Shown here piece after piece: positions 39,061 to 56,131 of a stretch of DNA of 56,939 bases; the first letter of the stretch is position 1, and each line of letters starts with the position of its first letter. The notes under the pieces were generated by a model. The model searched no databases, was not told where the DNA came from, and saw nothing but the letters and a program-made list of their open reading frames with translations. The translations under genes were made by a program, and so were the position numbers. The stretch is from Betaproteobacteria bacterium. Lineage in GTDB: Bacteria > Pseudomonadota > Gammaproteobacteria > Burkholderiales > Usitatibacteraceae. The stretch is taken from positions 1-56,939 of the forward strand of contig JBBIJT010000002.1 of assembly GCA_037445795.1 (NCBI GenBank), read 5' to 3'.

Positions 39061-41763
39061 ATGACGCCGGGTGCGAGAGACCCGCAGCTCGTCCTGAAAG
39101 CCACGCCGCCCAAGCTTCCCAAGACGCTTCTGGCACGGCCGCGGCTGAGCTGCTACGGCCCGGAGCTCGCCGACAAGCCCATCCTTCTTGTCCACGCGCC
39201 GTCGGGCTTCGGAAAGACGTCGCTGCTCGCGCAGTGGCGGCGCGAAGCGCTGCAACACGGGGCGGTGGTCGCCTGGCTGACGCTGGACGATCGCGACGAC
39301 GGGGCGCGCATCGTCCAGTCGCTGTCGGTCGCCCTGAGCATGAGCGGCGGACGGCGAAGCGCCGGTCCTTCGTATTCGCGGGCCGACGCACAGGTCGAAG
39401 GCGACTTCGAAGGGATCACGGCTTGGCTGGCCGACGTGGCCGAGATGGCCGTCGAGACCGTCCTCGTCCTCGACGAGGCGCATGCGCTGCCGGAAGCGAC
39501 GGCGAGCACGATCCTCGTGTACCTGCTGAACAACGCGCCGGCCAACCTCCGGGTCGTCGTGGCTTCGCGCAAGCCGGTCGGGCTGCCGGTCTCGGACATG
39601 CTCGCCCATGGCCAGGTCCGGTCCCTGGATGCCGACGACCTGCGATTCCGGCTCACGGAAACGATCGAGATCCTCACGGCGAGATTCGGGTCCCGCATCG
39701 ACTCCGACGCCTGCGTGCGCCTGCACGATCTCACGGAGGGCTGGCCCCTGGGCCTGCAGCTCGCCATCGCCACCATCGAGAGGAGCGCGAACGTGCGCGA
39801 GGCGATCGCCGCGTTCTCGTCCCGCTCCGGCGACATCCAGCGCTACTTCGTCGAGTGCCTGGTCGACCGCCTTCCGAAGCAGCTCGCGGATTTCCTCACC
39901 GCGGTCTCCTTCGTGGATGCCCTGCACCCCCTCCTGTGCGAGGCGATCACGCAGGGTGGAGATTGCGCCCAGGCGCTGGCGAAGCTGCGGGATGCGACGC
40001 CGATCTTCGTCGAAGGCGTCGACAGCGAATGGTCGCGCATCCACCCGCTCGCGCGGGACTTCCTCAAGGAACGCTTCGAGGCGCTTCCGGCCGCCGAGCG
40101 CCGCGAGTTCCATGCGCGCGCGGCAAGCTGGCTCGCCGGGCACGAGCTGCACGAGGAGGCGGCCCGGCAGGCCCTCCGGGCGGGCCAGGACGCGCTCGCC
40201 TTCGACCTGATCGAGCGAAGTCTCTACGGGATCGTGGTGAGCGGGCAGATGTCGCGGGTCCTGGAATGGATGGAGCGCCTGCCGGCCGCGGAGCTCGAGC
40301 GCAGGTCGCGGCTGAGGCTGGCGGCGGGATGGACCTTCGCCCAGAGCGACCAGCACGCGGAAGCGGCGAAGCTCGTCGGTCCGATCGTCGCCGATCCGGC
40401 TGCGGACCCCGGGGATCGCTTCGAAAGCGCCGAGATCTGCGCCACCGCGGCCATCTTCGCCGACGACATGGAGGGGGCGGAGCGGATCTTCTCGCCCTCG
40501 GTGGATTCGCTCGCCTCGCGATCCGTGATGCAGCGCGGCGTGGCCGCCAACCTGCTCGCGGTGCGGGACCTCTATCGGGGCGCCCCGGAACAGGCGCGCC
40601 TGCGCTACGCGCAGTTCTCCGGCCCGGAGTGGGAAAGCGTCGGGGTCTACACCCACGGGTGGGGCGACTGGATCGTCGGCGTGAGCTACCTGTGGGAGGG
40701 GCAGGTTGTCCTCGGCGAAGACGCCTTGCGTGCGTCGCTGGCACGTGCCGAGCAGGAAAGCGGGCGCCGAAGTCCCATCGCCGTCATGCTGGCCTCCGCG
40801 CTCGCTTCGGTCCTCTGGGAGCGCGACCTGACCGCCGAGGCGGCGGCCCTGCTGGCCAACCGCCTCGACGTGCTCGAGCGCCGTGCAGTGCCGGAGGCCA
40901 TCATCATGGGCTACGTGACCGCCGCGCGCGTGGCGACGATCGGTGGCCTGGAACGGCGCGCCTACGACCTTCTCGACAATCTCCACGCGCTGGGCGAGGC
41001 GCGTGGGCTGCCCCGCCTTTGCGTCGCGAGCCTCGCCGAGCAGATTCGCATGCACGCCCTGCGCTCGCACGCCGAGGCCTGCGCGAGCCTCGCCGGCCGG
41101 CTCGATCGGCTCACGACGCCCGAGCAGTACGCGCGGTGGAGCGCGGTCGGGGCGCTCGTGCAGACCTGGGTCGGGCTGGCCCGCGCCTATGCGGCGGTAG
41201 TGCGGCAGGATTGGCAGCAGGTGCAGGCCGAGCTCAAGGCCATCGGCCCCGTGGCGGACGGGCTGCGCCGCGGCCGGGACGGCATCCGGATCCGCCTCCT
41301 GCGGGCGCTCGCCCTGAAGCGCTGCGGCGAGGACGGTGACGCCCTTTTCGCGGAGGGCGTGAGCCTCGCGGAAACTTATGGACTGGAGCGGATGCTGGTG
41401 GACACGCATCCCGATCTCGTGGACTGGGCCCGGCGCATGGGGAATGCCCGGTCGGGGGAGGCCGGCGCGACCACGACTCACCGACTCGCGGTGCCGTCCG
41501 CGCCCGCGCCGGCTCGGCCTGCGGCGGGGACACACCCGCATGCCCGGGTTTCGCCCAGCGCCCTGCTCACGCCCAAGGAGCGGGAAGTGCTGCAGCTGCT
41601 GGCCGGCAACATGTCCAACAAGCAGATCGCGCTGGCCCTCGGCGTGGGCGTCGAGACCGTCAAGTGGCACATGAAGAACCTGTTCGACAAGCTCAACGCC
41701 GGGACCCGGAAGCACGTCCTCGACCGGGCGCGCATGCTCGGCATCCTCGATTCCCTTGCCTGA
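39061..41763 (+). CDS. Large ATP-binding LuxR-family regulator (LAL / MalT-like STAND)
   Basis: 900-aa ORF with an N-terminal P-loop (LLVHAPSGFGKTSLL) and a long helical TPR-like middle region. The C-terminal LuxR HTH reads LTPKEREVLQLLAGNMSNKQIALALGVGVETVKWHMKNLFDKL. Confidence 0.9.
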   Translation: MTPGARDPQLVLKATPPKLPKTLLARPRLSCYGPELADKPILLVHAPSGFGKTSLLAQWRREALQHGAVVAWLTLDDRDDGARIVQSLSVALSMSGGRRSAGPSYSRADAQVEGDFEGITAWLADVAEMAVETVLVLDEAHALPEATASTILVYLLNNAPANLRVVVASRKPVGLPVSDMLAHGQVRSLDADDLRFRLTETIEILTARFGSRIDSDACVRLHDLTEGWPLGLQLAIATIERSANVREAIAAFSSRSGDIQRYFVECLVDRLPKQLADFLTAVSFVDALHPLLCEAITQGGDCAQALAKLRDATPIFVEGVDSEWSRIHPLARDFLKERFEALPAAERREFHARAASWLAGHELHEEAARQALRAGQDALAFDLIERSLYGIVVSGQMSRVLEWMERLPAAELERRSRLRLAAGWTFAQSDQHAEAAKLVGPIVADPAADPGDRFESAEICATAAIFADDMEGAERIFSPSVDSLASRSVMQRGVAANLLAVRDLYRGAPEQARLRYAQFSGPEWESVGVYTHGWGDWIVGVSYLWEGQVVLGEDALRASLARAEQESGRRSPIAVMLASALASVLWERDLTAEAAALLANRLDVLERRAVPEAIIMGYVTAARVATIGGLERRAYDLLDNLHALGEARGLPRLCVASLAEQIRMHALRSHAEACASLAGRLDRLTTPEQYARWSAVGALVQTWVGLARAYAAVVRQDWQQVQAELKAIGPVADGLRRGRDGIRIRLLRALALKRCGEDGDALFAEGVSLAETYGLERMLVDTHPDLVDWARRMGNARSGEAGATTTHRLAVPSAPAPARPAAGTHPHARVSPSALLTPKEREVLQLLAGNMSNKQIALALGVGVETVKWHMKNLFDKLNAGTRKHVLDRARMLGILDSLA

Positions 41764-41767
41764 CCTC

Positions 41768-41786
41768 CCCGACCGTCCTGGTCGGG
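41768..41786 (+). terminator. Hairpin just after the LAL stop (possible terminator, no T-run)
   Basis: The hairpin is cccgacc-gtcct-ggtcggg, a 7-bp perfect stem starting 5 nt after the TGA. Confidence 0.3.
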
Positions 41787-41805
41787 ACGCCCCGGGCGCC
41801 CCTCC

Positions 41806-41821
41806 CCCCCAACGTTGGGGG
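41806..41821. promoter_or_regulatory. Perfect 16-bp palindrome CCCCCAACGTTGGGGG upstream of the DUF1302 operon
   Basis: Read directly from the sequence. It lies ~220 nt upstream of the DUF1302 ATG, in the 278-nt gap after the LAL gene. Confidence 0.3.
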
Positions 41822-42041
41822 TAACGGGCAGCGGCCTCCGGCATAGATTCCACCCTGCGCCATGCCCCGACCGGGGAGGGCCGGCCGGCCGCCGTCCCGC
41901 CTGACCCGGAAGGGCAAGAAAGTGTCACGCCAAGTCAAGTGGAGGCATGCGACGAAGCGTAGTTTCCCTCCGGCCCGAATGGGGCAGGAAGCGAGCCGGG
42001 ACCGCGGGGCAGGCATACAACTTACGAGGAGGAGCACCAGG

Positions 42042-44009
42042 ATGAACGTGCGGGAAGACAAGCTGGCGGGGAGCCGTATCAGGCGGGGCATCGCGGTGGC
42101 GGTGGCCATGGCATTCGCTCCTTCCGCGATGGCGCTGGACTGGGAGATGGACGACGGCTCCAAGCTCATCGTCAACACGACGATCTCGGCCGGCACGAGC
42201 GTTCGCGCGGCCAATCGCGACACCAAGCTGCTCCACCCCGGCAACGCGTCGCTGCAGGGCATCGCGGGCGCCGTGGGTGGGAACACCGACGACGGCGACC
42301 TCAACTATGCCAAGGGCGACGCGTTCTCGACCCTCGCGAAGATCGTGAGTGACATCGAGTACCGCCGGGGCAACTTCGGCGGATTCGTGCGCTTCAAGGG
42401 GTGGTACGACTACGCGCTCAAGAACAACGGCGTCGAGCACGGCAGCTACAACAACGGCTACGCCCCCGGCGCGAAGCTCTCCGATGCCGGCTTCGAGGAC
42501 CTCGCCAAGTTCTCCGGCGCCGAGTTCCTCGACGCCTACCTCTATGGAAGCACGAAGATCGCCGACCAGTACGACACCAAGGTGAAGGTCGGGCGGCACG
42601 TGCTCAACTGGGGCGAGAGCCTCTTCATCCAGGGCCTGAACCAGGTCAACCCGCTCGATGTCGCCGCGCTTCGCAAGCCCGGCACCGAGATCAAGGAAGT
42701 GCTCCTGCCGGTCGGCATGATCTCGGGTAACGTCGGCCTCGCGAAGGGCGCCTCGGTCGAGGGCTTCTACCAGTGGGAATGGAAGAACTCGGTCGTGGAC
42801 GGCTGCGGCACTTATTGGCTGACGGTCGATGGGTCGGTCGGGCCGAATGCCCAGTATGCCTGCCGCGCGGGCTTCAACCAGACCTTCACGGCGGCGCAAG
42901 CCGCGCAGATCGGAGGGCTTCTCGGCAGGCCCATCGCGGTGGGCGACCAGGGCGGCATCCAGGCGGGGGCCTTCATGCCCGCGGTTGCAACCAGGGAAGC
43001 GCGGGACAGCGGCCAGTTCGGCTTGTCGATGCGGTTCCCGGTCGAGGCCCTCGACACCGAGTTCGGCGCCTACGGCATGCGCATCCATTCGCGGACCCCG
43101 ACCCTCAGCGGCATCATCGGCAACTCGCCATTCCCGCTGACCACCGCCCTCCTGGGACCGGCCGGCACGCAGCAGCAGCTGTTCTGGGAGTATCCCGAGG
43201 ACGTCAAGCTCTACGGCTTGAGCGCGGCCACGGCGTTCCCCTGGGCGTCGGTCTCGGCCGAACTGAGCTACTCGCCCAATTTCCCTGTCCAGCTCGCTCC
43301 CGGCGACATGCTGGCGGGTCTCGTCTACGGGTCCAACCCGGCGGCGCTCGCCCTGCTGGGCGTGCCGGCGGCGCTGCGCCCGCTGCTCAACACCTACCGC
43401 GGCCCGCTCACCGACCGCCTGGCAGGCTTGCCTGCCGGCACGGTCTTCCACGGCTACGATCGGCTCAAGAAGACCCAGTTCCAGATGAATGCGATCCAGA
43501 CGATCGCCGACGTCCTGTGGTCGCAGGGGTTCACGGTGGCGGCCGAAGCGGGCATGCAGATCGCGAACGTGCCCGACGCCTCGACGGGCGTCCGCTACGG
43601 CCGCTCGTTCGTGTTCGGCATCGCGAACCACCCGTCCTACGGTCCCGTCCCGGGGCTCGTCGGCGGCTGCCCGCTGCTCAACACGGCCGGCCAGCCGGGG
43701 TGCGAGGCGGACGGCTTCGTGACCCACTTCTCCTGGGGCTATCGCCTGCGCGGCGAGCTGGCCTACGAAAACACGTTCAACCTGGGCATCCTCACCAAGC
43801 CTTCGCTGTTCTGGGGCCAGGACGTGAAGGGCTATTCCGCGGACGGCCAGTTCAACGAAGGCCGCCAGACGCTGGGTCTCGGCCTCGGGTTCGAGTACCA
43901 GAAGCGCTACAAACTCGACCTGAACTACGTCACCTACAACCGCAGCGCCAAGTGGGACCCGCTGCGCGACCGGGACTACTATTCGGCCACCGCCAGCATG
44001 ACGTTCTGA
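42042..44009 (+). CDS. DUF1302-family predicted outer-membrane beta-barrel protein
   Basis: ATG at 42042 is preceded by gaggaggag. The signal peptide is ...AFAPSAMA/LD. The block GGNTDDGDLNYAKGDAFSTLAKIVSDIEYRRGNFGGFVRFKGWYDYALKN matches my memory of DUF1302 proteins. The C-terminal ...ATASMTF is an OMP-type terminal Phe. Confidence 0.85.
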   Translation: MNVREDKLAGSRIRRGIAVAVAMAFAPSAMALDWEMDDGSKLIVNTTISAGTSVRAANRDTKLLHPGNASLQGIAGAVGGNTDDGDLNYAKGDAFSTLAKIVSDIEYRRGNFGGFVRFKGWYDYALKNNGVEHGSYNNGYAPGAKLSDAGFEDLAKFSGAEFLDAYLYGSTKIADQYDTKVKVGRHVLNWGESLFIQGLNQVNPLDVAALRKPGTEIKEVLLPVGMISGNVGLAKGASVEGFYQWEWKNSVVDGCGTYWLTVDGSVGPNAQYACRAGFNQTFTAAQAAQIGGLLGRPIAVGDQGGIQAGAFMPAVATREARDSGQFGLSMRFPVEALDTEFGAYGMRIHSRTPTLSGIIGNSPFPLTTALLGPAGTQQQLFWEYPEDVKLYGLSAATAFPWASVSAELSYSPNFPVQLAPGDMLAGLVYGSNPAALALLGVPAALRPLLNTYRGPLTDRLAGLPAGTVFHGYDRLKKTQFQMNAIQTIADVLWSQGFTVAAEAGMQIANVPDASTGVRYGRSFVFGIANHPSYGPVPGLVGGCPLLNTAGQPGCEADGFVTHFSWGYRLRGELAYENTFNLGILTKPSLFWGQDVKGYSADGQFNEGRQTLGLGLGFEYQKRYKLDLNYVTYNRSAKWDPLRDRDYYSATASMTF

Positions 44010-44049
44010 CGTCTGCCCGCGACAACGAATTCGAACGAGGAGAATGCAA

Positions 44050-45411
44050 ATGGATGTCACGAAATTCACGCGCGTCGCGCTTGCGGCCGTGCTCGCCGGG
44101 GTCATGGGGAGCGCGCTGGCCAAGGGAACGGCGCAGGAGATCGAGCGCCTGGGCAAGGACCTGACGCCGGTCGGCGCGGAAAGGGCCGGCAACAAGGACG
44201 GCACGATCCCCGCGTGGGACGGCGGCCTCACGAAGGCGCCGGCCGGATTCGACGCGAAGAAGGGCTACGCCGATCCGTACGCGACGGACAAGCCGCTCTT
44301 CACGATCACGGCGGCCAATGCCGAGCAGTACAAGAACAAGCTCTCCCCCGGCCAGCTCGCCCTGCTGAAGAAGTATCCCTCGTACAAGATCGTGGTCTAC
44401 CCGACCCACCGCAGCGCGGCACTCCCGCAGGAGCAGTACGATGCCATCCGCAAGTTCGCGGGCACGGCCGAGCTCACCTCGGGCGGCAACGGGGTGGCCG
44501 GAAGCGGCACCAGCTCCATTCCCTTCCCGTTTCCGAAGGCCGGCGAGGACGTCCTGTGGAACCACAGCTTCCGCTGGCGCGGCGGCGGCATGGAGCGCGA
44601 CGCGTCCTGGTACAACGTGACGGCGAACGGGTCGAGCTTCCGGGTGTCGTTCACCGACAAGTTCATCTTCGAGAACGTCGGCTACATGGACGTCAAGCGC
44701 GACAACATGAACTTCGTCTGGATGGGCTACTACCGGACGCCGGCCACGCTCGAGGGCACGATCATCCTCGTCTGGGACACGATCGACCAGAGCAAGGAAG
44801 CGCGCTCGGGATGGGTCTACAACGCCGGCCAGCGGCGGGTCCGGCGGGTTCCCGAGCTTTGCTGCGACTGGGCGGCCGACGGCACCGACGGCCTGCGCTT
44901 CACCGACCAGTACGACGCGTGGAACGGGCAGACCGACCGCTACACCTGGAAGCTCGTCGGCAAGAAGGAGATGTACATCCCCTACAACGACTACAAGCTG
45001 ACCGACAAGTCGCTCAAGAGCGCGGACGTGCTCAAGCCCGGGCACCCGAATCCGGATCTCGTGCGCCACGAGCTGCATCGCGTGTGGGTCGTCGAGGGCA
45101 CGCTCAAGGCCGGCGCGCGGCACGTCGTCGCCAAGCGCACGATGTATTTCGACGAGGACAACTGGCAGAACGCCGCCGCGGATCTCTACGACTCGCGCGG
45201 CCAGCTGTGGCGCTTCCAGGAGACTTACGCGATGCAGATGTACGACGCCACGGTTCCCCTCTATTCCGGCATCAGCTACTACGACCTCAACTCCGGCGCC
45301 TACCAGATGTTCGCCACCACGTTCGAGGACAAGCGCCCGCCTGTCTTCGGCGTGAAAGGAAAGCTCGCCGACTTTCAGCCCGACTCGCTGCGGCGGCTGG
45401 GCGGCAAGTAA
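44050..45411 (+). CDS. DUF1329-family (LolA-like fold) periplasmic protein
   Basis: GAGGAG lies 7 nt upstream of ATG 44050. The track start 44044 is only 1 nt from the SD. The signal peptide is ...VMGSALA/KG. The sequence IERLGKDLTPVGAERAGNKDGTIPAWDGGL is characteristic of DUF1329. Confidence 0.85.
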   Translation: MDVTKFTRVALAAVLAGVMGSALAKGTAQEIERLGKDLTPVGAERAGNKDGTIPAWDGGLTKAPAGFDAKKGYADPYATDKPLFTITAANAEQYKNKLSPGQLALLKKYPSYKIVVYPTHRSAALPQEQYDAIRKFAGTAELTSGGNGVAGSGTSSIPFPFPKAGEDVLWNHSFRWRGGGMERDASWYNVTANGSSFRVSFTDKFIFENVGYMDVKRDNMNFVWMGYYRTPATLEGTIILVWDTIDQSKEARSGWVYNAGQRRVRRVPELCCDWAADGTDGLRFTDQYDAWNGQTDRYTWKLVGKKEMYIPYNDYKLTDKSLKSADVLKPGHPNPDLVRHELHRVWVVEGTLKAGARHVVAKRTMYFDEDNWQNAAADLYDSRGQLWRFQETYAMQMYDATVPLYSGISYYDLNSGAYQMFATTFEDKRPPVFGVKGKLADFQPDSLRRLGGK

Positions 45412-45493
45412 TCTCGCGTCCGTCGCCGGCGTGGCGGTCCTCCCGGGGGCCGCTTCTCCGGCAGCGGCCGCACCCTGAAATCGCGGGCACACC

Positions 45494-46471
45494 ATGAAAT
45501 CCGTCCGGATCACGCTGGCGAGCCTCGCGGCCGCGGCCGCGGCACTGGCGCCCGCATTCTTCGCGTCGGCACAGGCCCCGCAGGCGCCGGCCGCGGCGTT
45601 CGTGCCCGAAGCGAACATCCCGCGCGTCGATCGCGTGCGCCTGATCTGCCTCGCGCGAGCCGGCAGCCGGCTGGTCGCCGCCGGCGAGCGCGGCCGCATC
45701 CTCACCTCGGACGACGACGGCAAGTCCTGGGCGGTGGCGAGCACCCCCACGTACAACACGCTCACCTCCGTCACCTTCGTCGACGACAAGGTGGGTTTCG
45801 CGACGGGACACCAGGCCACGCTCCTCAGGACCGGGGACGGTGGCAGGACCTGGCAGGCTGCCTCGCTGCAGATGGGCGAGAAGGCCACGCTATTCGCGCT
45901 CCGGATGCAGGGCGATCGCGGCATGGCCGTCGGGGCCTATGGCGCCTTCGTCGAGACGGCGGATGGCGGGCGCACGTGGAAGGAGCGCCGCATCGGCCCC
46001 GGGGGGTTCGACCGGCACCTGAACGGCATCGCCGCGGTCGGACTGGACACGCTCGTGATCGCCGGCGAGGCCGGCACCCTGCTGCGGTCGAAGGACCGCG
46101 GCGCGAAGTGGGAAGTGCTCAAGTCGCCCTACGAGGGTTCCTTCTTCGGAATCGTCGCGATCAAGGGCGGAGCGGCCATCGCCTACGGGATGCGCGGCAA
46201 CGCGTTCCGGACCGGCGATGGCGGCAATACCTGGCAACGCGTCGACCTCGGCGGCTACAAGGGCGCCCTCCAGACCGGTTCGGAGCTGGCCGACGGCACC
46301 GTGGTGCTCGCCGGCGCCGACGGGATGCTCGCCACGAGCAACGATGAGGGCAGGTCCTTCGTGACCCAGCCCATCGCCGACCGTCGCACGGTCGCCGCGC
46401 TGCAGCGCACCGGCGACGGCCAGTGGCTCACCGCGGGACTATTCGGCCTGCGCGCGGCCAAGGTGCGCTGA
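45494..46471 (+). CDS. Secreted YCF48-like BNR/Asp-box beta-propeller protein
   Basis: 325-aa ORF with a signal peptide and six Asp-boxes: SDDDGKSW, TGDGGRTW, TADGGRTW, SKDRGAKW, TGDGGNTW and SNDEGRSF. Confidence 0.85.
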   Translation: MKSVRITLASLAAAAAALAPAFFASAQAPQAPAAAFVPEANIPRVDRVRLICLARAGSRLVAAGERGRILTSDDDGKSWAVASTPTYNTLTSVTFVDDKVGFATGHQATLLRTGDGGRTWQAASLQMGEKATLFALRMQGDRGMAVGAYGAFVETADGGRTWKERRIGPGGFDRHLNGIAAVGLDTLVIAGEAGTLLRSKDRGAKWEVLKSPYEGSFFGIVAIKGGAAIAYGMRGNAFRTGDGGNTWQRVDLGGYKGALQTGSELADGTVVLAGADGMLATSNDEGRSFVTQPIADRRTVAALQRTGDGQWLTAGLFGLRAAKVR

Positions 46472-46511
46472 ATCCCCCGCGCGCGAGCGCCCCGACTTCA
46501 CGAGCCGCCCC

Positions 46512-48887
46512 ATGACCGGACCCAAGCAGCTTTCGCGCAACCACTTCGGCTCGTCGTGGGTCGGCATCGTCTCGTACTACATCTTCCACTGGCGCAAGCC
46601 CCTGCTCGCGGTCTTCGCTCTGGTCACCCTGGCGCTCACGTTCTCCGCGACGCGGCTCGAGGTCCAGGCCGGCTTCAACAAGATGCTGCCGCTCGAGCAT
46701 CCGTACATGAAGACCTTCCTCAAGTACCGGGACGAGTTCGGCGGCGCCAACCGCGTGCTCGTGGCGGTGAGGGCGCGGAACGGCGACATCTTCAACGCGA
46801 AGGCGCTCGCCAAGCTGAAGGCCATCCACGACGAGGTCTTCTTCATCCGCGGCGCGGAACGCTCGAGCGTGCTTTCGCTCTACAGCCCTCCCGCCATGTT
46901 CATGGAGGTCGTGGAGGACGGCTTTGTCTCGGGCCCCGTGCTGCCGTCGAACTTCGACGGCTCGCCGGCCGCGTTCGAGGCGTTTCGCGCGAACCTGCTG
47001 AAGTCACAGTGGATCGGGCGCCTCGTCGCGAACGACTTCACGGCGGCGATGGTCTCGGTCACGCTGCTCGACAACGATCCCGAGGGCGGGGGCAGGCTCG
47101 ACCTGAGGCGCGTCGGCGCCGACCTGGAGAAGATCCGGGCCGAGCACGAAGACGCCGACTTCGAGGTGGAGATCATCGGCTTCGCCAAGGCCACGAGCGA
47201 CATCGCGGGCGGGGCGGCGGGAGTCCTCGTTTTCTTCGGCATCGCGGCGCTGATCACCGCCGCCCTCCTGTACTGGTATTCGGGCTCGTTGATGCTCACC
47301 GCGCTTTCGTTGGTGATCGCCCTGGTGCCGGTGGTCTGGCTCCTGGGGCTGCTGCCGGTGCTGGGCCTGAAGCTCGATCCGCTGTCGATCCTCGTGCCGT
47401 TCCTGATCTTCTCGATCGGGGTGAGCCACGCGGTGCAGATGACCAACGCGTGGAAGCTCGAGATGCTGCACGGCGCGGACGGCGTCAGCGCCGCGCGCAT
47501 CGCGTTCGTGAAGCTCTTCATCCCGGGCGCAAGCGCTCTCCTCGCCAACGGGATCGGCTTCCTCGTGATCGCGCTGGTCAAGATCGAGATCGTGCAGGAG
47601 CTCGTGTTCACGGCGACGCTGGGCGTGTCGCTGATGATACTGACCAACAAGGTACTGCTTCCCATCCTCCTTTCCTACAGCAAGCTCAGCGCGAAGGATG
47701 CCGGGAAGCTGCACGGGCGCGAGGGCATCGGCGATCCCATGTGGCGCCGCCTCGCCTGCATCGCCACCCCGAAATACGCGGTAGTGGTGATCGCGCTGGC
47801 CGCCGTGTCGCTGGCCGCAGGGCTGTGGAAGGCGCGCGAGCAGGTGATCGGCGACCTGGGACGCGGCGTTCCGGAGCTCCGTGCGGATTCCCGCTACAAC
47901 CGGGACGTCGACGAGATCACGAAGCGCTTCGCCGTGGGCGTGGACGTGCTGCAGGTGATCGCCGAGGGGAAGGAGCCCGCCACCTGCAACCGGTTCGAGG
48001 TGCTCGACGCCATCGACCGCTTCGAGTTCCTGATGCGCCAGACCGATGGCGTCCAGTCCGTGCGCGGCCTGGCCGGGTTCGTGAAGGAGGCGACCGTCGG
48101 CTTCTCGGAGGGCGACGTCAAGTGGGCGGCGATTCCCGACACCAAGGAGCAGCGCAACCAGGCGGCCGGGTTCTCGACCCGAAGCGGCACCGACCTCATC
48201 AACCGCGACTGCTCGGTGATGAACGTGTCCATCTTCACGAAGGACCACCAGGCCGGGACGCTCGCCCACATCGTGCGCGAGGTCAAGCGATTCAAGGGGG
48301 CCTTCGACAACGACGCGCTCACGTTTCAGCTCGCCACCGGCAATGCGGGCGTCATGGCGGCCACCAACGAGGCGGTCGCCGCGGCGGATCATTGGGTCAA
48401 CTGGGCGCTGTTCGGGGCGGTGACGCTGCTTTGCCTCGTCACGTTCCGGTCGCTGTCCATCACCGCGTGCGTGGTCCTGCCGCTGGGGCTCGTCACCGTG
48501 CATTGCTACGCGCTGATGGCCCAGCTCGGCATCGGCATGAAGGTGAACACCCTGCCCGTGGTGGCCCTCGGCGTGGGCGTCGGCGTGGACTACGGCATCT
48601 ACCTCTTCGAGGTGATGCGCCATGAAATGAAGAGCCGCGCGATGAGCCTCGAAGCCGCCTTCTTCGAGGCGCTGCGCCAGCGCGGCACGGCTTCGCTGTT
48701 CACCGCGATCACGATGACGATCGGGGTCGCGACCTGGCTCTTCTCCGACCTCAAGTTCCAGGTCGACATGGGCATCCTGCTCGCCTTCATGTTCCTCGTG
48801 AACGCCTTCGGTGCGATCCTCCTGCTGCCGGCGCTGGCCGCGTTCCTCGTCCGTCCGTCGAGGAAGCGCGAGGAAAAGACGGCCTGA
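46512..48887 (+). CDS. RND-superfamily / MMPL-like inner-membrane transporter
   Basis: 791-aa ORF with two repeats, each an N-terminal TM helix, a large periplasmic loop and a 5-TM bundle (for example LVFFGIAALITAALLYWYSGSLMLTALSLVIALVPVVWLLGLLPVLGL). This resembles HpnN/MMPL-type exporters rather than AcrB, which is longer (my recollection is about 1000 aa or more). Confidence 0.85.
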   Translation: MTGPKQLSRNHFGSSWVGIVSYYIFHWRKPLLAVFALVTLALTFSATRLEVQAGFNKMLPLEHPYMKTFLKYRDEFGGANRVLVAVRARNGDIFNAKALAKLKAIHDEVFFIRGAERSSVLSLYSPPAMFMEVVEDGFVSGPVLPSNFDGSPAAFEAFRANLLKSQWIGRLVANDFTAAMVSVTLLDNDPEGGGRLDLRRVGADLEKIRAEHEDADFEVEIIGFAKATSDIAGGAAGVLVFFGIAALITAALLYWYSGSLMLTALSLVIALVPVVWLLGLLPVLGLKLDPLSILVPFLIFSIGVSHAVQMTNAWKLEMLHGADGVSAARIAFVKLFIPGASALLANGIGFLVIALVKIEIVQELVFTATLGVSLMILTNKVLLPILLSYSKLSAKDAGKLHGREGIGDPMWRRLACIATPKYAVVVIALAAVSLAAGLWKAREQVIGDLGRGVPELRADSRYNRDVDEITKRFAVGVDVLQVIAEGKEPATCNRFEVLDAIDRFEFLMRQTDGVQSVRGLAGFVKEATVGFSEGDVKWAAIPDTKEQRNQAAGFSTRSGTDLINRDCSVMNVSIFTKDHQAGTLAHIVREVKRFKGAFDNDALTFQLATGNAGVMAATNEAVAAADHWVNWALFGAVTLLCLVTFRSLSITACVVLPLGLVTVHCYALMAQLGIGMKVNTLPVVALGVGVGVDYGIYLFEVMRHEMKSRAMSLEAAFFEALRQRGTASLFTAITMTIGVATWLFSDLKFQVDMGILLAFMFLVNAFGAILLLPALAAFLVRPSRKREEKTA

Positions 48888-48900: not shown

Positions 48901-48920
48901 GGTTCGCGATTACGCGAACC
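48901..48920. terminator. Perfect hairpin between convergent operons (8-bp stem, 4-nt loop)
   Basis: The hairpin is ggttcgcg-atta-cgcgaacc, starting 14 nt after the RND stop. The loop contains the TAA stop of the convergent GST-like gene. There is no T-run on either side. Confidence 0.35.
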
Positions 48921-50013
48921 TGACGGTCAAGCCGGAGATTTCCAGCCGCGGAATGTCGAGCGCCAGCAAGCGAGCGCCGCCCGAGTCCTCGACCCAACGG
49001 CGGACGCGTTCGCCGTCCTCCGCGGGCATGGCCGCTAGCAAATCGAGCGCGCGCTGCACCAGCCACAGCGTGAACGGAACCGCGAGCCGCGAGTGCGTGC
49101 CGTCCGCCAGGGGATAGCTCACCGTGCCGAGGAAGCGCTCGATGCGCTTGCCGCTGACGGGCACGGGCTCGGCCCGGCGCAGCTCGTCGAGCGTGGCCTC
49201 GACATAGGGCAGGAATTCGTCGAAGAGGCTGCGGATGACGGGCCCCAACGTCGCCGGCAATGGAGTGCCGATGGCGGGGAACGGGGGCGCTTCCTTCGTG
49301 AGGTAGGGCTGGTTCATCCGCCACACCCACGCATGGAGGTTCGGGCGCGGCAGCACGAACTCGTCGCGCGACCAGGGATCGCGGGTGACGTGTCCGAAGA
49401 AGGGCACGATCAGGCCGAAATCGAAGCGCGTCGCACGCTCGCCCAGCAGGTAGGGATGCTCGGCGAAGTGGGCGTCGAGCGCATCCATGTTTTGCCGGGC
49501 CCAGCGCCAGATGAGCGGCTGCGTCTCCACGGTGGCGCCGATGCGCGGCAGGTGGGCCTGGATCTTGCGCGCGACACTGCCCACGAGCGCGTTCTTCACG
49601 GCCTTCGGGAAGCCGAACAGCATTCCCTCGCCGAGCTCCTCGTACCACCAGGGATACTCGGTGCGTCCCAGCCAGCGCGTCGCCAGGTCGAAGGGCATCC
49701 AGAATTCGCTCGCCCAGACGCCGGCCAGCGTCGTGAAGAACGCGTGCACCGGATCGGGAGGAAGGATCGGGTCGTCCGGGTATCGCGCCTCGAGGCGGTC
49801 CAGGATGACCTCGCTATCGGCGATCCACTCGCCTTCGGGGGTGATGAGGACCGGAACCGTGGGGTCACCGAAGCGCCGCGCGATGGTGACGTTGTACGTC
49901 CACAGGGTAGGAACCCGCTCGACGTAATCGATGCGCTTCTTGAGCAGGTAGCTGCGCACGCGCGCGCTGTAGCGCGAGCAGAGGGCGCCAAGCAGCAAGG
50001 GGACGTTCTGCAT
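48910..50013 (-). CDS. GST-like protein (thioredoxin-fold N-domain, GST-like middle, ~150-aa unknown C-terminal extension)
   Basis: I prefer ATG 50013 (MQNVPLLLGALCSRYSARVRSYLLKKRIDYVERVP...VPVLITPEGEWIADSEVILDRLEARYP), with GGAAGGA 9 nt upstream. ATG 50022 is an alternative. Confidence 0.65.
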   Translation of the reverse strand: MQNVPLLLGALCSRYSARVRSYLLKKRIDYVERVPTLWTYNVTIARRFGDPTVPVLITPEGEWIADSEVILDRLEARYPDDPILPPDPVHAFFTTLAGVWASEFWMPFDLATRWLGRTEYPWWYEELGEGMLFGFPKAVKNALVGSVARKIQAHLPRIGATVETQPLIWRWARQNMDALDAHFAEHPYLLGERATRFDFGLIVPFFGHVTRDPWSRDEFVLPRPNLHAWVWRMNQPYLTKEAPPFPAIGTPLPATLGPVIRSLFDEFLPYVEATLDELRRAEPVPVSGKRIERFLGTVSYPLADGTHSRLAVPFTLWLVQRALDLLAAMPAEDGERVRRWVEDSGGARLLALDIPRLEISGLTVRFA

Positions 50014-50096
50014 GTTCCTCATTCCTTCCTGTCCGGCACGGGCTCGAACAGGGTGATGAATTCCTCGACCGCGGCCGGCAACCGGACCGCACGGAC

Positions 50097-50516
50097 TCAG
50101 GCGCCGGAGAGCTTCGCGGCGAGCTTCAGGATCCAGTAGAGCACGATCGCCACTTGCGCGAGGAACAGGGCGAAGCGCACGTTCACCGCCATGACGCTGG
50201 TCGAGTAGAGGTGCACGATGGACTGGCCCACGCGGCACCCCAATGCGAGCAATGCCAGGGGGTCGGTGATGGCCGTCGAACCGGTCGAGAGCGCGATCAG
50301 GAGCGTGCCGCCGAAGAAGGGGAAGCTCTCGTAGCAGTTGGCATGCGCGCGCACCAGTCGGCCCGCGAAGGGGTACATGTCCGAGCCGTCGGGCCTGAAG
50401 CTGTTGGGCGCACGCTCGCCTTTCAGGACGGCGCCCACGCGAACCCCGCCGATGATCAGGAGCAGGAACAGGAACCAGGCGATGTAGCCGGTCAATGCGA
50501 TGGCGCTTGCGTTCAT
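50097..50516 (-). CDS. MAPEG-family membrane protein (MGST-like)
   Basis: 139-aa ORF with four hydrophobic helices. The block LVRAHANCYESFPFFGGTLLIA resembles the MAPEG conserved region (R-x-H-x-N-x-x-E). Confidence 0.7.
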   Translation of the reverse strand: MNASAIALTGYIAWFLFLLLIIGGVRVGAVLKGERAPNSFRPDGSDMYPFAGRLVRAHANCYESFPFFGGTLLIALSTGSTAITDPLALLALGCRVGQSIVHLYSTSVMAVNVRFALFLAQVAIVLYWILKLAAKLSGA

Positions 50517-50642
50517 GGTGGCTCCGGGGGTGATTGATCGAATGTCGCTGCTTTCAGTGCGAGCGCGTACTCTGCGCCTTGCGCTTCGCGTCCACTGCCG
50601 GCACGGGCCCGGGCGGCAGCCACCACGAGTGCTTCGCCAGGC

Positions 50643-51893
50643 TCAGGCCGGCTTCTCCCGGCTGAGGATATGGATCGCGACGGCCGCCTCCTCGATCCCC
50701 TGCAGGCCGCCGCCGTTCTCCTGCATGGCGTGCCGAACGCCCGGCACCTGCCTTGCCCCTGCCTCGCCGCGCAGCTGCGTGGTGAGCTCGAAGAGCTGGC
50801 CCAGTCCGGTGGCCCCCAGGGGGTGCCCCTTGCTCTCCAGGCCGCCGGAGGGATTGACCGGCAGGCGACCGCCGAGCGTGAATTCGCCGCGCTCGGCCGC
50901 GGCTCCGCCGTGCCCCAGCGGCACGAATCCGAGGTTCTCGACCTGGATGATCTCGCCCATCGCCGAGGCGTCGTGGACTTCGGCCACGCCGATGTCCTCG
51001 GGTCCGAGACCCGCCTGCTCGTAGGCCTGCTGTGCGGCGAGCCGGGAGACGTGCAGCTCCGGCTGGTCGAGGCGGCGGTGGCTGAAGCTGCGCATCACGC
51101 TGGCGGCGACCCGGATGCAGCGGGCACGGTCGGCGCCGATGCGCTGCAAGCCCTCCTCGGTGCAGACGATGGCCGCGGCCGCGCCGTCCGACAGCGGCGC
51201 GCACATCGGCAGCGTGAGGGGGTAGGTGATGGGCGGCGCGGTGAGGATTTCCTCGGTGGTGAAGGGCTTCCGGAACTGCGAGAAGGGGTTGTGCACCGAG
51301 TGCTGGTGGTTCTTGGCCGACACCGCCGCGATCTGCCGCTGCGTCGTGCCGAAGGTCTTCATGTGGTTGCGGCACATCGCGGCGTAGATCGCCATGAAGC
51401 GGCTGTAGGGCCTGTCGGACTCGCTGCCCGGGGGCACCTCGACGCCTTCCCCCATCTTCACGAGCGTCCGGTAGTTCTCCTCGGCGCGCGAGACGTCCCA
51501 TCCGCCCTCGAAGAGCGCGAACGCCTTCGCCTTGTCGGGGATGTTCATCTTCTCCGCGCCGAGGGCGAGCGCCACGTCCGTCGTGCCCGCCCGAAGGCTC
51601 TGCACCGCGAGGTGGAAGGCCGTGCTGCCCGAGGCGCAGGCGTTTTCGACGTTGTAGATGGGAATCGAGTCGATGCCGATCTTCGAGAAGACCACCTGGC
51701 CGGGAATGGAGAGCTGGCCCTGGAGGTAGCTCTGCGTCATGCCCGAATAGACGGCGGTGCCAATGTCCCTGGCTGCGCAGCCGGCGTCCTTGAGGGCGCC
51801 CTGGAGAGCCTCGCGCGCGAGGTCGTCGAGCGGGCGCTCGGGGTGGCGCCCGAACACCGTCATGGCGATCCCCGCGATGAAGACGTCGGTCAT
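50643..51893 (-). CDS. SCPx/lipid-transfer-protein-type thiolase
   Basis: 416-aa ORF (MTDVFIAGIAMTVFGRH...) with the active-site Cys in NVENACASGSTAF and C-terminal blocks NPSGGLESKGHPLGATG. Confidence 0.88.
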   Translation of the reverse strand: MTDVFIAGIAMTVFGRHPERPLDDLAREALQGALKDAGCAARDIGTAVYSGMTQSYLQGQLSIPGQVVFSKIGIDSIPIYNVENACASGSTAFHLAVQSLRAGTTDVALALGAEKMNIPDKAKAFALFEGGWDVSRAEENYRTLVKMGEGVEVPPGSESDRPYSRFMAIYAAMCRNHMKTFGTTQRQIAAVSAKNHQHSVHNPFSQFRKPFTTEEILTAPPITYPLTLPMCAPLSDGAAAAIVCTEEGLQRIGADRARCIRVAASVMRSFSHRRLDQPELHVSRLAAQQAYEQAGLGPEDIGVAEVHDASAMGEIIQVENLGFVPLGHGGAAAERGEFTLGGRLPVNPSGGLESKGHPLGATGLGQLFELTTQLRGEAGARQVPGVRHAMQENGGGLQGIEEAAVAIHILSREKPA

Positions 51894-51912
51894 GATGCCT
51901 GCTGCGTCCAGG

Positions 51913-53469
51913 TCATATCGCGCGGCCCGTGTCCTGCCAGTACTTCTGGCGCAGGTCCTTCTTGAGCACCTTGCCCACCGGGCTTCGCGGGAGCGAGGCG
52001 ACGAACTCCACCGACTTGGGCGCCTTCACCGAGCCCAGCTTCTCCTTGCAGAGCGCGATCAGCTCTTCCGCCGTCACGCTCCCTCCGGGGTTCAGCTCGA
52101 CCACGGCCTTCACGGCCTCGCCCCACTTCTCGTCGGGCACGCCGATGACGGCGCAGTCCTGCACCGCCGCGTGGCTCCAGATCACCTGCTCGACTTCGTT
52201 GGGATAGACGTTGAAGCCGCCGGAGATGATCATGTCCTTCTTGCGGTCCGTGATGTGCAGGTAGCCCTCGGCGTCGACGTGGCCGACGTCGCCCGTGTGC
52301 AGCCAGCCGTCGACGATGGTCTCGGCCGTCTTGTCCGGCTGCTTGTAGTAGCCCTTCATCACGAGGTCGCCGCGCACGCAGATCTCGCCCGTCTCGCCCT
52401 TGCCGAGGATGCGGTTGTCGCCGTCGAGGATCTCGACGCGGACGAGCGCATTGGGGCGCCCGACCGAGGTGAGCCGTTCGTCGTGGGCCAGCCTGCCGCC
52501 GACGAAATGCTCGTCGGGGCGCAGGTACGAGATGGAGGCCGGCGCCTCGGTCTGGCCGTAACCGCCGGTCATCACCGGGCCAATCACCTCGATGGCCTTC
52601 TTGAGCTTCTCGAGCGACATGGGCGCCGCGCCGTACATCAGGTACTTGAGGGAAGAGAAGTCGACCTTCTCGATGCCGGGAATCTCCAGCAGGCGGTAGA
52701 TCACCGTCGGGGGCAGGAAGAACTCCGTCACGCGGTGCCTCGCGATCGCGTCGAACATCAGCGCCGGATCGGGCTTCTCGAGCACCACGACCGTGCCGCC
52801 GCGCGCGGTGCAGGGCAGGCCGAGCACGCCGGCGGTGTGGGTCATCGGCGCCGCGGCGAGGTTGACCGGCCGCTCGTTGCCGCCATAGGACACGGCGATC
52901 ATGTAGTTGGCGACGAAGGTCTGGATGCTGCGGTGGGTGTTCATCACCCCCTTGGGCATGCCGGTGGTCCCGCCCGTGGCCATGACCGCGACGACGTCGT
53001 CCATCTGGTAGTCGACCTCCGGCGCGGTGAGGGGCAGGGAGCCGCACCAGGCCTCGAGCGACGGGGCATCCGGCAGGTCGCCGTCGAGGCAGATCCAGAG
53101 CCGGATGCGGGGAAGCTTCGGCCGCAGCTCGGCGATGACCGGCGCGAACGCCTTCTGGAAGAAGACCACCTCGCAGTCGAAGGCATCGAGGATGAACCGG
53201 TTGTCCTCCGCCGAGCCGCGCGGGCTCACGGGAATCCAGGCGAGCCCCGCTCGCCACAGGCCGAGGGTGCACGTCCAGGCCACCGGGTCGTTGAGGGCCC
53301 ACACGGCACCCTTGGCTTCCTTCGGGAAGCCGGCGGCGAGCAGGCCGTTGGCGATGCGGCACGAAAGGTCGCGCACCTCGGTGAACGACCAGGAGCGCTC
53401 GCCCATGATGTAGGCGGCGCCGGCGGGGTTGGCGCGCCAGCCGCGGTCGAGGAAATCGATGATGGCCAT
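51913..53469 (-). CDS. Acyl-CoA synthetase (AMP-forming, ANL superfamily)
   Basis: ATG at 53469. The AMP-binding motif is TGGTTGMPKGV, and YGQTE, GWLHTGDVG and DRKKDMIISGGFNVYP are also present. Confidence 0.93.
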   Translation of the reverse strand: MAIIDFLDRGWRANPAGAAYIMGERSWSFTEVRDLSCRIANGLLAAGFPKEAKGAVWALNDPVAWTCTLGLWRAGLAWIPVSPRGSAEDNRFILDAFDCEVVFFQKAFAPVIAELRPKLPRIRLWICLDGDLPDAPSLEAWCGSLPLTAPEVDYQMDDVVAVMATGGTTGMPKGVMNTHRSIQTFVANYMIAVSYGGNERPVNLAAAPMTHTAGVLGLPCTARGGTVVVLEKPDPALMFDAIARHRVTEFFLPPTVIYRLLEIPGIEKVDFSSLKYLMYGAAPMSLEKLKKAIEVIGPVMTGGYGQTEAPASISYLRPDEHFVGGRLAHDERLTSVGRPNALVRVEILDGDNRILGKGETGEICVRGDLVMKGYYKQPDKTAETIVDGWLHTGDVGHVDAEGYLHITDRKKDMIISGGFNVYPNEVEQVIWSHAAVQDCAVIGVPDEKWGEAVKAVVELNPGGSVTAEELIALCKEKLGSVKAPKSVEFVASLPRSPVGKVLKKDLRQKYWQDTGRAI

Positions 53470-53507
53470 TTCGTGGCTTTCGTCAGGCGCGCGCGGGCGG
53501 GCGGCGC

Positions 53508-54638
53508 CTAGAGCGGCGTGACGGTGGCGCGGGCCAGGCCGCGCTGCTCGAGGAAGCCGAGCAGGTAGCGGTGCCCGAACGCCTTGGATCCCGACGCGAA
53601 GCCGACGCGGGCCGTCTCGCCGTCGAGGAGCTTCAGGACGCCGGCCGTCTGGACGGCGCCGGTCGAGATGTACGGCGTGACGCCGTGGACGGTGGCGCGC
53701 ACGGCGGCGAGCTGGCCGCGGCCGATCGCGAAGTCGACCGTGCGCTGCAGGGTCGTGCGCTCGCGGGGGGGCATCGTGGGCGTCGTGGAGGCGACGAGCT
53801 GCTGCAACACGGCGTCCTGGTGCTCCGCGGGCAGGTGCTTGTACTCCGCCTCCCACTTCTGGCCGAGGCCGTGCACGAGCCGCATCACGTCGTTGTCGTA
53901 GAAGCCCACGCTCGAGACGCAGGCGCGCACGCGCGGGTCGGTCTCGAAATGGATCGGGAGGGAAGTGCCGCCCCACGGCAGCGAGAACACCGGCTGGAGG
54001 AAATCGGGCGACACGACGTTGAACGAGGCGTCGGGCGCGTGCGCGACCAGCTTCTTCTCCCAGAGGAAGTGCGCCGTCGACTGGAAGAGGCCGAAGATCG
54101 AGGCGGTCGAGCCCACCGTGACGCCGGCGGCATCGCGCGGACCCCGCGTCAGGCACGCCGTCTCCAGCGTGTCGACGCCCGGCGTCTCCAGCGCGAGCTC
54201 CGCGGCGATCTCGGAGAACGTGTACATGTAGGCAAGCGACGGCGAGACGAGAAGGCCTGCCTGGCGGAAGTGCTCGCCGAACCGGGCGCGCACCGCGGCG
54301 ATGTAGGCCTGCTCGCCGGTCGTGTCGAGGTGGTGGCAGCCCGCCTTCAGGGCCGCCTCGACCGCCGTGAGGCCGAACCTGGCGAAGGGGCCCACGGTAT
54401 TGCAGACGACCCTGGCGCCCTTGAAGGCCTTCGTGAGCGATTCGACCGTGTGCTCGGCTTCGACAATCTCGTAGGTCGCGGATTCGAGGCGAACGACGCG
54501 CTGGGCCATCATCTCCTTGACGCGCGCGGCATTGCGCGCGACGGCGGTAAAGGGGATGGCCTGGTCGATGAGCCAGTCCATGATGAGCATGCCGGTGTAG
54601 CCACTGGCGCCATAGACGACGACGGGGTGCTTTGCCAT
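53508..54638 (-). CDS. Saccharopine-dehydrogenase-like NAD(P)-binding protein (possible trans-acting enoyl reductase type)
   Basis: 376-aa ORF with an N-terminal Rossmann motif (VVVYGASGYTGMLI). The architecture resembles saccharopine dehydrogenase family proteins. Confidence 0.7.
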   Translation of the reverse strand: MAKHPVVVYGASGYTGMLIMDWLIDQAIPFTAVARNAARVKEMMAQRVVRLESATYEIVEAEHTVESLTKAFKGARVVCNTVGPFARFGLTAVEAALKAGCHHLDTTGEQAYIAAVRARFGEHFRQAGLLVSPSLAYMYTFSEIAAELALETPGVDTLETACLTRGPRDAAGVTVGSTASIFGLFQSTAHFLWEKKLVAHAPDASFNVVSPDFLQPVFSLPWGGTSLPIHFETDPRVRACVSSVGFYDNDVMRLVHGLGQKWEAEYKHLPAEHQDAVLQQLVASTTPTMPPRERTTLQRTVDFAIGRGQLAAVRATVHGVTPYISTGAVQTAGVLKLLDGETARVGFASGSKAFGHRYLLGFLEQRGLARATVTPL

Positions 54639-54678
54639 TTCTCGGTTCCTTTGCTTGAAGTCGGGCCGGGCGGGCGCT

Positions 54679-56072: not shown

Positions 56073-56131
56073 GTCGCGACGCTTCGCTGCCATCGTTCGG
56101 TAGCGCCCATGGAGAGGGCGGAGAGGAAGCC

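Follow-up and report, generated by a model that had tools for sequence, protein, structure and literature searches.

A probable AmeABCD-type hydrophobic-cargo transporter (tetrapartite HAE3-RND cassette) in a Usitatibacteraceae genome

We investigated a 56,939-nucleotide stretch of DNA (hereafter the window) from a Betaproteobacteria bacterium of the Usitatibacteraceae (assembly GCA_037445795.1, contig JBBIJT010000002.1, positions 1 to 56,939 of the forward strand), in which four genes, here called g1 to g4, encode a DUF1302 protein, a DUF1329 protein, a beta-propeller, and a permease belonging to the RND (resistance-nodulation-division) superfamily. Together they very probably constitute an AmeABCD-type transporter of hydrophobic cargo, that is, a tetrapartite HAE3-RND cassette; the window quartet is a further copy of a named, widespread cassette, not an unnoticed system. 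As to its function, we favor, at a probability of roughly 45%, a relay that spans the envelope, carries hydrophobic small molecules or lipids, and works outward on an exogenous cargo. A preliminary description of the window, made from its sequence, had reported four co-directional genes separated by ~40, 82, and 40 nt, and the ORF (open reading frame) coordinates agree: all four lie on the + strand, with intergenic gaps of 40, 82, and 40 nt.

41764..42041, + strand: upstream leader/promoter region, with an AGGAGG ribosome-binding site 8-9 nt ahead of the g1 ATG.
42042..44009, + strand: g1, DUF1302 outer-membrane beta-barrel (predicted), AmeA homologue, 655 aa (Pfam, AlphaFold2 model, AmeA identity).
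44050..45411, + strand: g2, DUF1329 periplasmic protein, AmeB homologue, 453 aa (Pfam, AlphaFold2 and Foldseek, AmeB identity).
45494..46471, + strand: g3, secreted Ycf48-like beta-propeller, AmeC homologue, 325 aa (Pfam, Ycf48 chains in the PDB).
46512..48887, + strand: g4, HAE3/MMPL-like RND permease, AmeD homologue, 791 aa (Pfam, NCBIfam, hydropathy).

Since the G+C content of the window is ~70%, the raw ORF list was crowded by shadow frames, and the real genes were picked by third-position G+C. The starts of g1 (42042) and g2 (44050) were set by the window's own products in the protein database (655 and 453 aa); the g2 ORF has alternative starts at 44044 and 44050, of which 44050 was retained as the one that gives the 453-aa database product. 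The N-termini of g1, g2, and g3 are signal-peptide-like, with AxA sites and no lipobox Cys. A scan of 38200-49300 found no promoter-like site and no sigma-70 consensus, and terminator-like sites in the same interval were no more frequent than in shuffled sequence. Rfam and tRNA scans of the window gave no match, and no paralogue of g1-g4 was found elsewhere in it.

The named counterpart of the quartet is AmeABCD of Castellaniella defragrans. One of the related loci retrieved here (L077) is ameABCD of C. defragrans DSM 12141; its ORFs encode 605, 451, 329, and 813 aa, the first two being the exact published sizes of AmeA and AmeB and the next two containing AmeC and AmeD. Window g1, g2, g3, and g4 share 40, 47, 41, and 55% identity with AmeA, AmeB, AmeC, and AmeD, respectively. 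AmeABCD was described as a "tetrapartite RND transporter" made up of DUF1302, DUF1329 (LolA superfamily), COG4447 (Ycf48-like), and HAE3 RND proteins, and members of the AmeD lineage were reported to lie, without exception, in such four-gene cassettes (Puentes-Cala et al., 2018; PMC6394551). In the same study, all four proteins were induced on a monoterpene, and an ame deletion strain grew poorly on unfunctionalized monoterpenes, was less tolerant of limonene above 5 mM, and retained somewhat more Nile Red; the authors proposed a role in efflux (PMC6394551). Elsewhere, the four families were found to be cofit in Shewanella, Kangiella, and Pseudomonas, and export of a cell-wall component was proposed (Price et al.; 10.1101/072470). 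The Pseudomonas putida homologues and PP_0767, a regulator of the LuxR type, are specifically needed on Tween 20, and the DUF pair and the propeller also on butyl stearate, while none is needed on laurate or myristate (10.1101/2020.07.04.188060). Structure predictions suggest contacts between the proteins: AlphaFold-Multimer gave an ipTM (interface predicted TM-score) of 0.84 for DUF1302-DUF1329 (PMC13499233), and in AlphaFold co-folding the RND protein made a strong contact with the propeller and DUF1329 touched both the RND protein and the barrel (PMC10866462). DUF1302 and DUF1329 proteins are also present in outer-membrane vesicle/nanopod preparations (PMC3110197). The preliminary description had taken the quartet for one noticed only in surveys and biochemically undefined. 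The former part has to be given up, as the cassette has a name, a deletion phenotype, P. putida genetics, and AlphaFold models; the latter stands, in that none of the papers we found reports a transport assay, a ligand bound to one of the proteins, or a structure solved by experiment.

A scan with g4, limited to one genome per species, returned 560 relatives; the best 80 loci of the 560 were fetched, and the quartet was counted by tblastn with the four window proteins. All four genes are present in every one of the 67 loci that have enough flank, and each of the 13 incomplete loci is truncated by the end of its contig. The gene order is g1-g2-g3-g4 in 61 of the 67 and g3-g4-g1-g2 in 3, and a further arrangement, the usual order plus a second DUF1329 copy behind g4, was seen in 3. 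Co-conservation of the four families, on which the preliminary description had staked its grouping, is therefore borne out, and the quartet is more than a chance neighborhood. The loci belong to Beta- and Gammaproteobacteria (Usitatibacter, Rhodocyclales, Burkholderiales, Steroidobacteraceae, Pseudomonas), with Usitatibacter metagenome-assembled genomes holding the nearest relatives of the window quartet (76% identity for g4, 79% for g2). In these two classes the cassette is very common, as judged from at least 560 species-representative genomes with close g4 relatives, and a DUF1329 protein search returned at least 7,931 protein clusters at E <= 1e-10.

Some related cassettes carry additional genes. 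In at least eight loci (L007, L022, L031, L033, L035, L041, L046, and L063), the RND gene is closely followed by another DUF1329 paralogue, 41-49% identical to g2, and these cassettes hence carry two predicted LolA-like carriers, where the window carries one. In the closest Usitatibacter relative (L001), the product of the gene after the RND gene (12291-14621) is 776 aa long, and its propeller matches are SMP-30/gluconolactonase-like and Vgb-lyase-like. In P. putida, the putative lactonase PP_2021 is in an operon with the BNR/RND pair.

We then considered the four products one by one. g1 matches Pfam DUF1302 (PF06980) with 509 bits (cut-off 23.2), covering the whole 541-position model, and ends in ...SMTF, with a terminal Phe. 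Its AlphaFold2 (AF2) model (predicted local distance difference test, pLDDT, 88.7; predicted TM-score, pTM, 0.85) consists mainly of long antiparallel strands arranged in a large barrel with long loops, and on this model g1 is an outer-membrane barrel. Foldseek of the model against the PDB returned generic porin/Occ barrels alone (query-normalized TM-score, TMq, 0.30-0.37), and a phmmer sequence search of the PDB with g1 returned no DUF1302 relative. Two Cys pairs are conserved among g1 homologues, and no His is conserved at >=95% in 60 of them.

g2 matches Pfam DUF1329 (PF07044) with 445 bits (cut-off 23.1) and LolA_like (PF17131) with 22.5 bits, under the cut-off of 30. In its AF2 model, built from a 58-sequence alignment (pLDDT 89.7, pTM 0.89), residues ~180-430 form a LolA-type sheet. 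The best Foldseek match is P. gingivalis LolA3 (9tp6, target-normalized TM-score, TMt, 0.86), together with 4z48, 3bk5, and 3buu, and followed by LolA, LolB, and RseB/MucB; by sequence, a g2 profile of 19 homologues reaches 9tp6 at E=1.9e-5. A phmmer search of the PDB with g2 gave no usable match, so that LolA3 and 4z48 were reached by profile and fold search alone. The C-terminal half of this DUF1329 protein is accordingly modeled as a LolA fold. The N-terminal ~150 aa are without a solved counterpart, yet hold the family's most conserved motif, and the PDB contains no structure of a full-length DUF1329 protein of the g2 type. A side feature of g2 is a vicinal Cys273-Cys274 (44860-44865, PELCCDW) where the family consensus has PDLAYDN; being common to 19 of the 58 aligned homologues, the pair is clade-specific, and it possibly forms a vicinal disulfide.

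These folds bear on the suggestion of Thompson et al. that the DUF1302 and DUF1329 proteins are a missing fatty-ester hydrolase, an outer-membrane esterase, and not parts of a transporter, a suggestion prompted by the lack of any esterase that accounts for growth of P. putida on Tween 20 or butyl stearate (10.1101/2020.07.04.188060). We rejected this reading as highly improbable on the predicted folds and because g1 has no conserved His: neither a LolA carrier fold nor a porin-like barrel is like a hydrolase fold, and a Ser-His-Asp triad, and with it a serine-hydrolase barrel, is unlikely for g1 since no His is conserved. Moreover, the DUF pair is linked to an RND gene in 67 of 67 loci, and the same authors' group later reinterpreted the pair as transport components (PMC10866462).

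g3 matches Pfam PSII_BNR (82.9 bits) as well as BNR, reaches Ycf48 chains in the PDB at E ~1e-20, and has six S/T-x-D-x-G-x-(T/S)-(W/F) Asp-boxes, counted in its translation. Its best NCBIfam match is Ycf48 (NF010237), at 102.9 bits against an equivalog cut-off of 326. g4 matches Pfam MMPL with 60.6 bits (cut-off 20.5), whereas ACR_tran (27.5 bits, cut-off 28) and Patched (22.3 bits) both fall just short; its best NCBIfam match is HAE3 (TIGR00921), at 143.8 bits, beneath the trusted cut-off. Hydropathy gives g4 a 1+5/1+5 layout of transmembrane helices (TM): TM1, a loop of ~185 aa, TM2-6, TM7, a loop of ~195 aa, and TM8-12, both loops being periplasmic by topology. Ser305-His306 in TM4 and Asp693-Tyr694 in TM10 are invariant across 19 homologues. 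By profile alignment, the former falls at the GxxxD position of the NPC1-related NCR1 and the latter on the Asp-Asp pair (D407/D408) of AcrB-type pumps. g4 thus has Ser-His in TM4 where NPC1-type relatives have Asp, which would make the putative proton relay asymmetric; of the canonical acidic relay residues it retains one, and a variant relay composed of Ser-His, with its titratable His, and Asp-Tyr is compatible with proton coupling. The SSD-like (sterol-sensing-domain-like) region of g4 weakly matches NPC1-related sterol transporters by sequence.

The preliminary description had named g1 a 655-aa DUF1302 protein with a signal peptide and a ...SMTF end, g2 a DUF1329 protein with a signal peptide, no lipobox Cys, and a family resemblance to LolA, g3 a secreted YCF48-related propeller with six Asp-boxes, and g4 a 791-aa RND/MMPL-like inner-membrane protein. 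The translations, the barrel and LolA-fold models, the RND topology, and the Pfam scores, which for DUF1302 and DUF1329 are well over the cut-offs, uphold each of these assignments, and with them the picture of an envelope-spanning set made up of an RND energizer, a pair of soluble proteins in the periplasm, and a barrel in the outer membrane. It had also concluded that the module is not a classical tripartite pump. In line with this, Pfam gave no match to a membrane-fusion protein (HlyD/MFP) or TolC/OEP family in the quartet and 29 neighboring ORFs scanned (586-56601).

We infer the order of hand-over, the proton coupling, the direction, the cargo, and the link with a regulator as follows. 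g4 would be driven by protons, the likely relay being the invariant residue pairs in TM10 and TM4, and the g3 propeller would be seated on its periplasmic domain. The RND protein would pass cargo to the LolA-like g2, which would dock beneath the g1 barrel, and through g1 the cargo would enter or cross the outer membrane. Such a relay might serve as an overflow or efflux valve that spares the inner membrane an overload of poorly metabolizable hydrophobics (neutral esters, terpenes, and similar compounds), and the adjacent MalT-like activator (39061-41763) would probably turn the cassette on. That the four proteins act jointly is suggested by the published cofitness of homologues, and the protein contacts and deletion phenotypes are likewise drawn from the literature. 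A hydrophobic cargo had been put forward in the preliminary description, and we judge it a sensible inference.

Several considerations favor the outward direction. To our knowledge, every characterized bacterial RND protein moves its cargo outward (HAE1, MmpL3, HpnN), and we know of none shown to import. Extraction of a hydrophobic molecule from a membrane needs energy, and its insertion does not. The lower tolerance of the ame mutant to high limonene and its higher Nile Red retention (PMC6394551), the pleiotropic envelope and motility phenotypes of family mutants (10.1101/072470), and the ApeL/ApeM/ApeN trio discussed below point the same way. Lastly, in ~10 Steroidobacteraceae-like loci (L012, L013 at 3062-4732, L015, L021, L024, L027, L036, L049, L079, and L070), a WS/DGAT wax-ester/triacylglycerol synthase gene, whose product is biosynthetic, immediately precedes the DUF1302 gene and shares its direction, often with acyl-CoA dehydrogenase (ACAD) and TetR genes ahead of it. 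This arrangement fits export of neutral esters, and for the WS/DGAT-linked clade it hints at neutral fatty esters as cargo and at transport outward.

A census of flanking ORF clusters in the 64 compact-quartet loci gave ACAD in 22, AMP-binding ligase in 16, old yellow enzyme (OYE) in 14, short-chain dehydrogenase/reductase in 13, zinc-dependent alcohol dehydrogenase in 13, alpha/beta-hydrolase in 12, sulfatase in 11, and WS/DGAT in 10. Neighborhoods differ by lineage: in Usitatibacter, an AMP-binding ligase gene is divergent from g1; in Rhodocyclales, ame included, ACAD is upstream and the ligase downstream; in Steroidobacteraceae-like loci, ACAD, TetR, and WS/DGAT precede the quartet and OYE follows; and in Pseudomonas, AraC is found along with dehydrogenases and sulfatases. 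Taken across lineages, the cassette acts like a portable unit combined with different kinds of hydrophobic-compound metabolism.

Some observations nevertheless weigh against an outward relay, and many of them would suit the opposite direction, which we consider somewhat unlikely yet a serious rival: RND-assisted uptake of nutrients that are bulky and hydrophobic (neutral fatty esters, terpenes, steroids), TonB-independent and driven by the proton-motive force, as a bacterial counterpart of NPC2 to NPC1. Here g1 would admit the substrate, DUF1329 would carry it across the periplasm in the manner of NPC2 with sterol, the RND-propeller pair would insert it into the inner membrane in the manner of NPC1, and an acyl-CoA ligase would trap the released acid. 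The published case for efflux is weak, because the Nile Red difference of the ame mutant is small and was seen only in cells treated with CCCP (carbonyl cyanide m-chlorophenylhydrazone), which is odd for a proton-driven pump (PMC6394551). Growth of the mutant was normal on oxygenated monoterpenes and on acetate to which limonene had been added at up to 5 mM, and poor on hydrocarbons as sole carbon source (PMC6394551); impaired uptake explains this pattern equally well. P. putida mutants suffered in a pooled assay when grown on Tween 20 and butyl stearate, but not when the substrate was laurate or myristate (10.1101/2020.07.04.188060), an ester-specific defect private to the mutant that argues for a function in substrate access. 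The neighborhoods consist mostly of catabolic enzymes, with the acyl-CoA ligase and ACAD genes counted above recurring in many lineages, and of activator-type regulators (MalT-like, AraC, and LuxR-type PP_0767), as is usual for uptake genes. The likeness of the SSD region of g4 to NPC1-related sterol transporters would likewise suit import, with NPC2-to-NPC1 transfer as a precedent inside the RND superfamily. Two further points tell against the outward relay: the TM4 Asp that is canonical in RND pumps is replaced by Ser-His in g4, so that proton coupling is not assured, and nothing in the window identifies the cargo, nor did we find a transport assay for any family member. Import, for its part, has to contend with the RND precedent and the energetics of insertion, with the limonene tolerance and Nile Red retention, with the envelope and motility phenotypes, and with the WS/DGAT gene directly upstream in 10 loci, and we retain the outward relay as the favored reading.

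Next, we examined the surroundings of this copy. The gene upstream of the quartet encodes a regulator.

39061..41763, + strand: MalT-like LAL/STAND regulator, 900 aa, candidate activator (Pfam AAA_16/AAA_22 and GerE, the C-terminal LuxR helix-turn-helix).

Co-directional with g1 and 278 nt upstream of it, this gene encodes a product that shares with MalT/LAL (STAND) regulators an N-terminal STAND NTPase, a sensor region, and a C-terminal LuxR helix-turn-helix. Among NCBIfam models the product fits MalT best, with a score of 226 bits across residues 14-646; it is not MalT itself, as this score is under the equivalog cut-off of 537. The regulator probably switches on the cassette, by analogy with the LuxR-type PP_0767 of P. 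putida. A MalT-like regulator lies within 10 kb in 9 of the 67 related loci, while others have AraC or TetR regulators, and we therefore rejected it as a universal partner of the quartet. Of the "dedicated STAND regulator" in the preliminary description, the STAND-type (MalT-like) gene is confirmed, and its dedication can be put forward only tentatively in view of those nine loci.

On the other side, the quartet converges with a minus-strand operon (48910..56601), with 22 nt between the stop codon of the operon and that of g4.

54679-56601, - strand: ACAD, 640 aa, with recognizable ACAD domains beginning only at ~residue 350.
53508-54638, - strand: DUF5938/NAD-binding protein (saccharopine-dehydrogenase-like NAD domain).
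51913-53469, - strand: long-chain-fatty-acid-CoA ligase-like protein, AMP-binding (translation, NCBIfam).
50643-51893, - strand: SCP-x-type thiolase.
50097-50516, - strand: MAPEG protein.
48910 to ~50001, - strand: glutathione-S-transferase-like protein.

The longest listed ORF in the ligase region, 51890-53362 (-), was discarded as a shadow frame without a Pfam match, third-position G+C showing the gene to be 51913-53469 (-). The operon is an odd mixture, with glutathione transferases alongside beta-oxidation-like enzymes. It adjoins the quartet in none of the 80 related loci: its non-generic members were not found there, and the other loci give only generic ACAD matches (24-29% identity). 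A conserved partnership was rejected on these grounds, and the operon is context, not an established part of the module. The preliminary description was right that the module faces an acyl-CoA catabolic operon, and the ligase/dehydrogenase theme does recur elsewhere; the operon itself does not.

Further upstream of the regulator are genes for SulP, metX, an ABC-F ATPase, gatA, mreBCD, PBP2, and rodA.

12951-18446, - strand: cell-shape cluster mreB-mreC-(mreD)-PBP2-rodA.
18882-20348, + strand: gatA.
4910-6511: malate synthase.
8114-9067: lipoyl synthase.

Since these upstream genes are housekeeping genes, this copy sits in the core chromosome and not in a catabolic island. Three ORFs with a strong coding signal (third-position G+C 0.89-0.94), at 26828-28045 (+), 35816-36487 (-), and 7012-8019 (+), have no Pfam match, and the second of them has no NCBIfam match either.

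A location beside mreBCD, PBP2, rodA, and metX would suit another outward reading, in which an endogenous envelope lipid or cell-wall component is exported to the outer membrane for housekeeping or remodeling, and the substrate phenotypes are secondary to an altered outer membrane. This is in essence the proposal of Price et al., who drew on pleiotropic cofit phenotypes and a mutant with altered motility (10.1101/072470); the presence of DUF1302 and DUF1329 in vesicle/nanopod preparations (PMC3110197) is consistent with it, as is the outward transport of endogenous lipids by the HAE3 relative HpnN and the ApeL/M/N trio. We nevertheless hold it to be unlikely: the cassette is repeatedly found inside catabolic islands (monoterpenes, phenanthrene, steroids) and is substrate-induced (PMC6394551; 10.1101/072470), its neighborhoods vary by lineage as those of an accessory module do, and no lipid-biosynthesis genes are adjacent to it in the window. 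We stay with the outward relay for exogenous cargo.

Genes for the breakdown of terpenes, fatty esters, steroids, and aromatics adjoin the cassette, which is present almost universally in P. aeruginosa. Defining its cargo, direction, and architecture would close a gap in our understanding of how water-insoluble molecules cross the Gram-negative periplasm without MFP or TolC. This question is already recognized in several papers, and P. putida and C. defragrans give equal access to it; the window is one more well-formed example of the cassette, with no special handle beyond residue and fold details. What it adds is a predicted LolA fold in DUF1329's C-terminal half, the Ser-His/Asp-Tyr transmembrane pair, and a recurrent wax-ester-synthase neighbor in another lineage.

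Lastly, we compared the module with known systems. AcrAB-TolC and MexAB-OprM (HAE1) are, as the module is thought to be, proton-driven, envelope-spanning systems of the RND superfamily. However, their permease has ~1050 aa, compared with 791 aa for g4, which falls below ACR_tran and scores 20.7 bits with NF000282 (cut-off 1250), and they include MFP and TolC components, neither of which the window module has. HpnN and MmpL3 share with g4 the size class, two small periplasmic domains, and a hydrophobic lipid cargo, which for g4 is presumed. MmpL3 presumably also has an Asp-Tyr pair in TM10, as g4 does. By contrast, HpnN and MmpL3 have no barrel, propeller, or LolA-like protein dedicated to them, and g4 has Ser-His in TM4 rather than Asp-Tyr; g4 also fails the HpnN model TIGR03480 (50.2 bits, cut-off 751.85). 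NPC1/NPC2 (yeast NCR1/NPC2) pair an RND protein that has an SSD-like TM2-6 region, to which g4 shows a weak sequence match, with a small soluble carrier of hydrophobic ligands, as the window may do; NPC2, however, has an Ig-like and not a LolA fold, the direction is from lumen to membrane, and there is no outer-membrane barrel, so the analogy is one of logic only.

The Lol pathway shares with g2 the LolA-type open beta-barrel fold, as predicted here (LolA3, LolA, LolB, and RseB in Foldseek), but g2 fails the LolA_like sequence model and has an RND protein as its partner, and no LolCDE-type ABC genes were found nearby. Kinship of g3 with the photosystem II assembly factor Ycf48/HCF136 is at the domain level only, given that g3 fails the equivalog model. 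ApeL/ApeM/ApeN of aryl-polyene clusters likewise have an RND and a LolA-fold protein in place of MFP, with a proposed role in lipid delivery to the outer membrane (PMC8253772); their outer-membrane partner is a LolB-like lipoprotein rather than a large barrel, they have no propeller, and they belong to a biosynthetic cluster. The likeness drawn here is one of architecture.

The system of P. putida shares with the window the four families, cofit in that organism, a LuxR-family positive regulator beside the DUF pair, and a fatty-acid CoA ligase nearby. Strain KT2440 carries the set at two separate loci, whereas the window and other P. putida strains, such as L051, have one cassette; P. putida has a fatty-ester phenotype on record, and the window copy is known here from its sequence. 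AmeABCD of C. defragrans 65Phen shares with the window the four families, the gene order, and the protein sizes (605/451/316/787 aa vs. 655/453/325/791 aa), is likewise without MFP or TolC, and has acyl-CoA enzymes near it, as the window copy does. The differences are that g1 is ~50 aa longer than AmeA, that g2 has the clade-specific vicinal Cys-Cys, and that AmeABCD sits in a monoterpene island, whereas the window copy sits in the core chromosome, accompanied by a MalT-like regulator and by an acyl-CoA operon that is unrelated.

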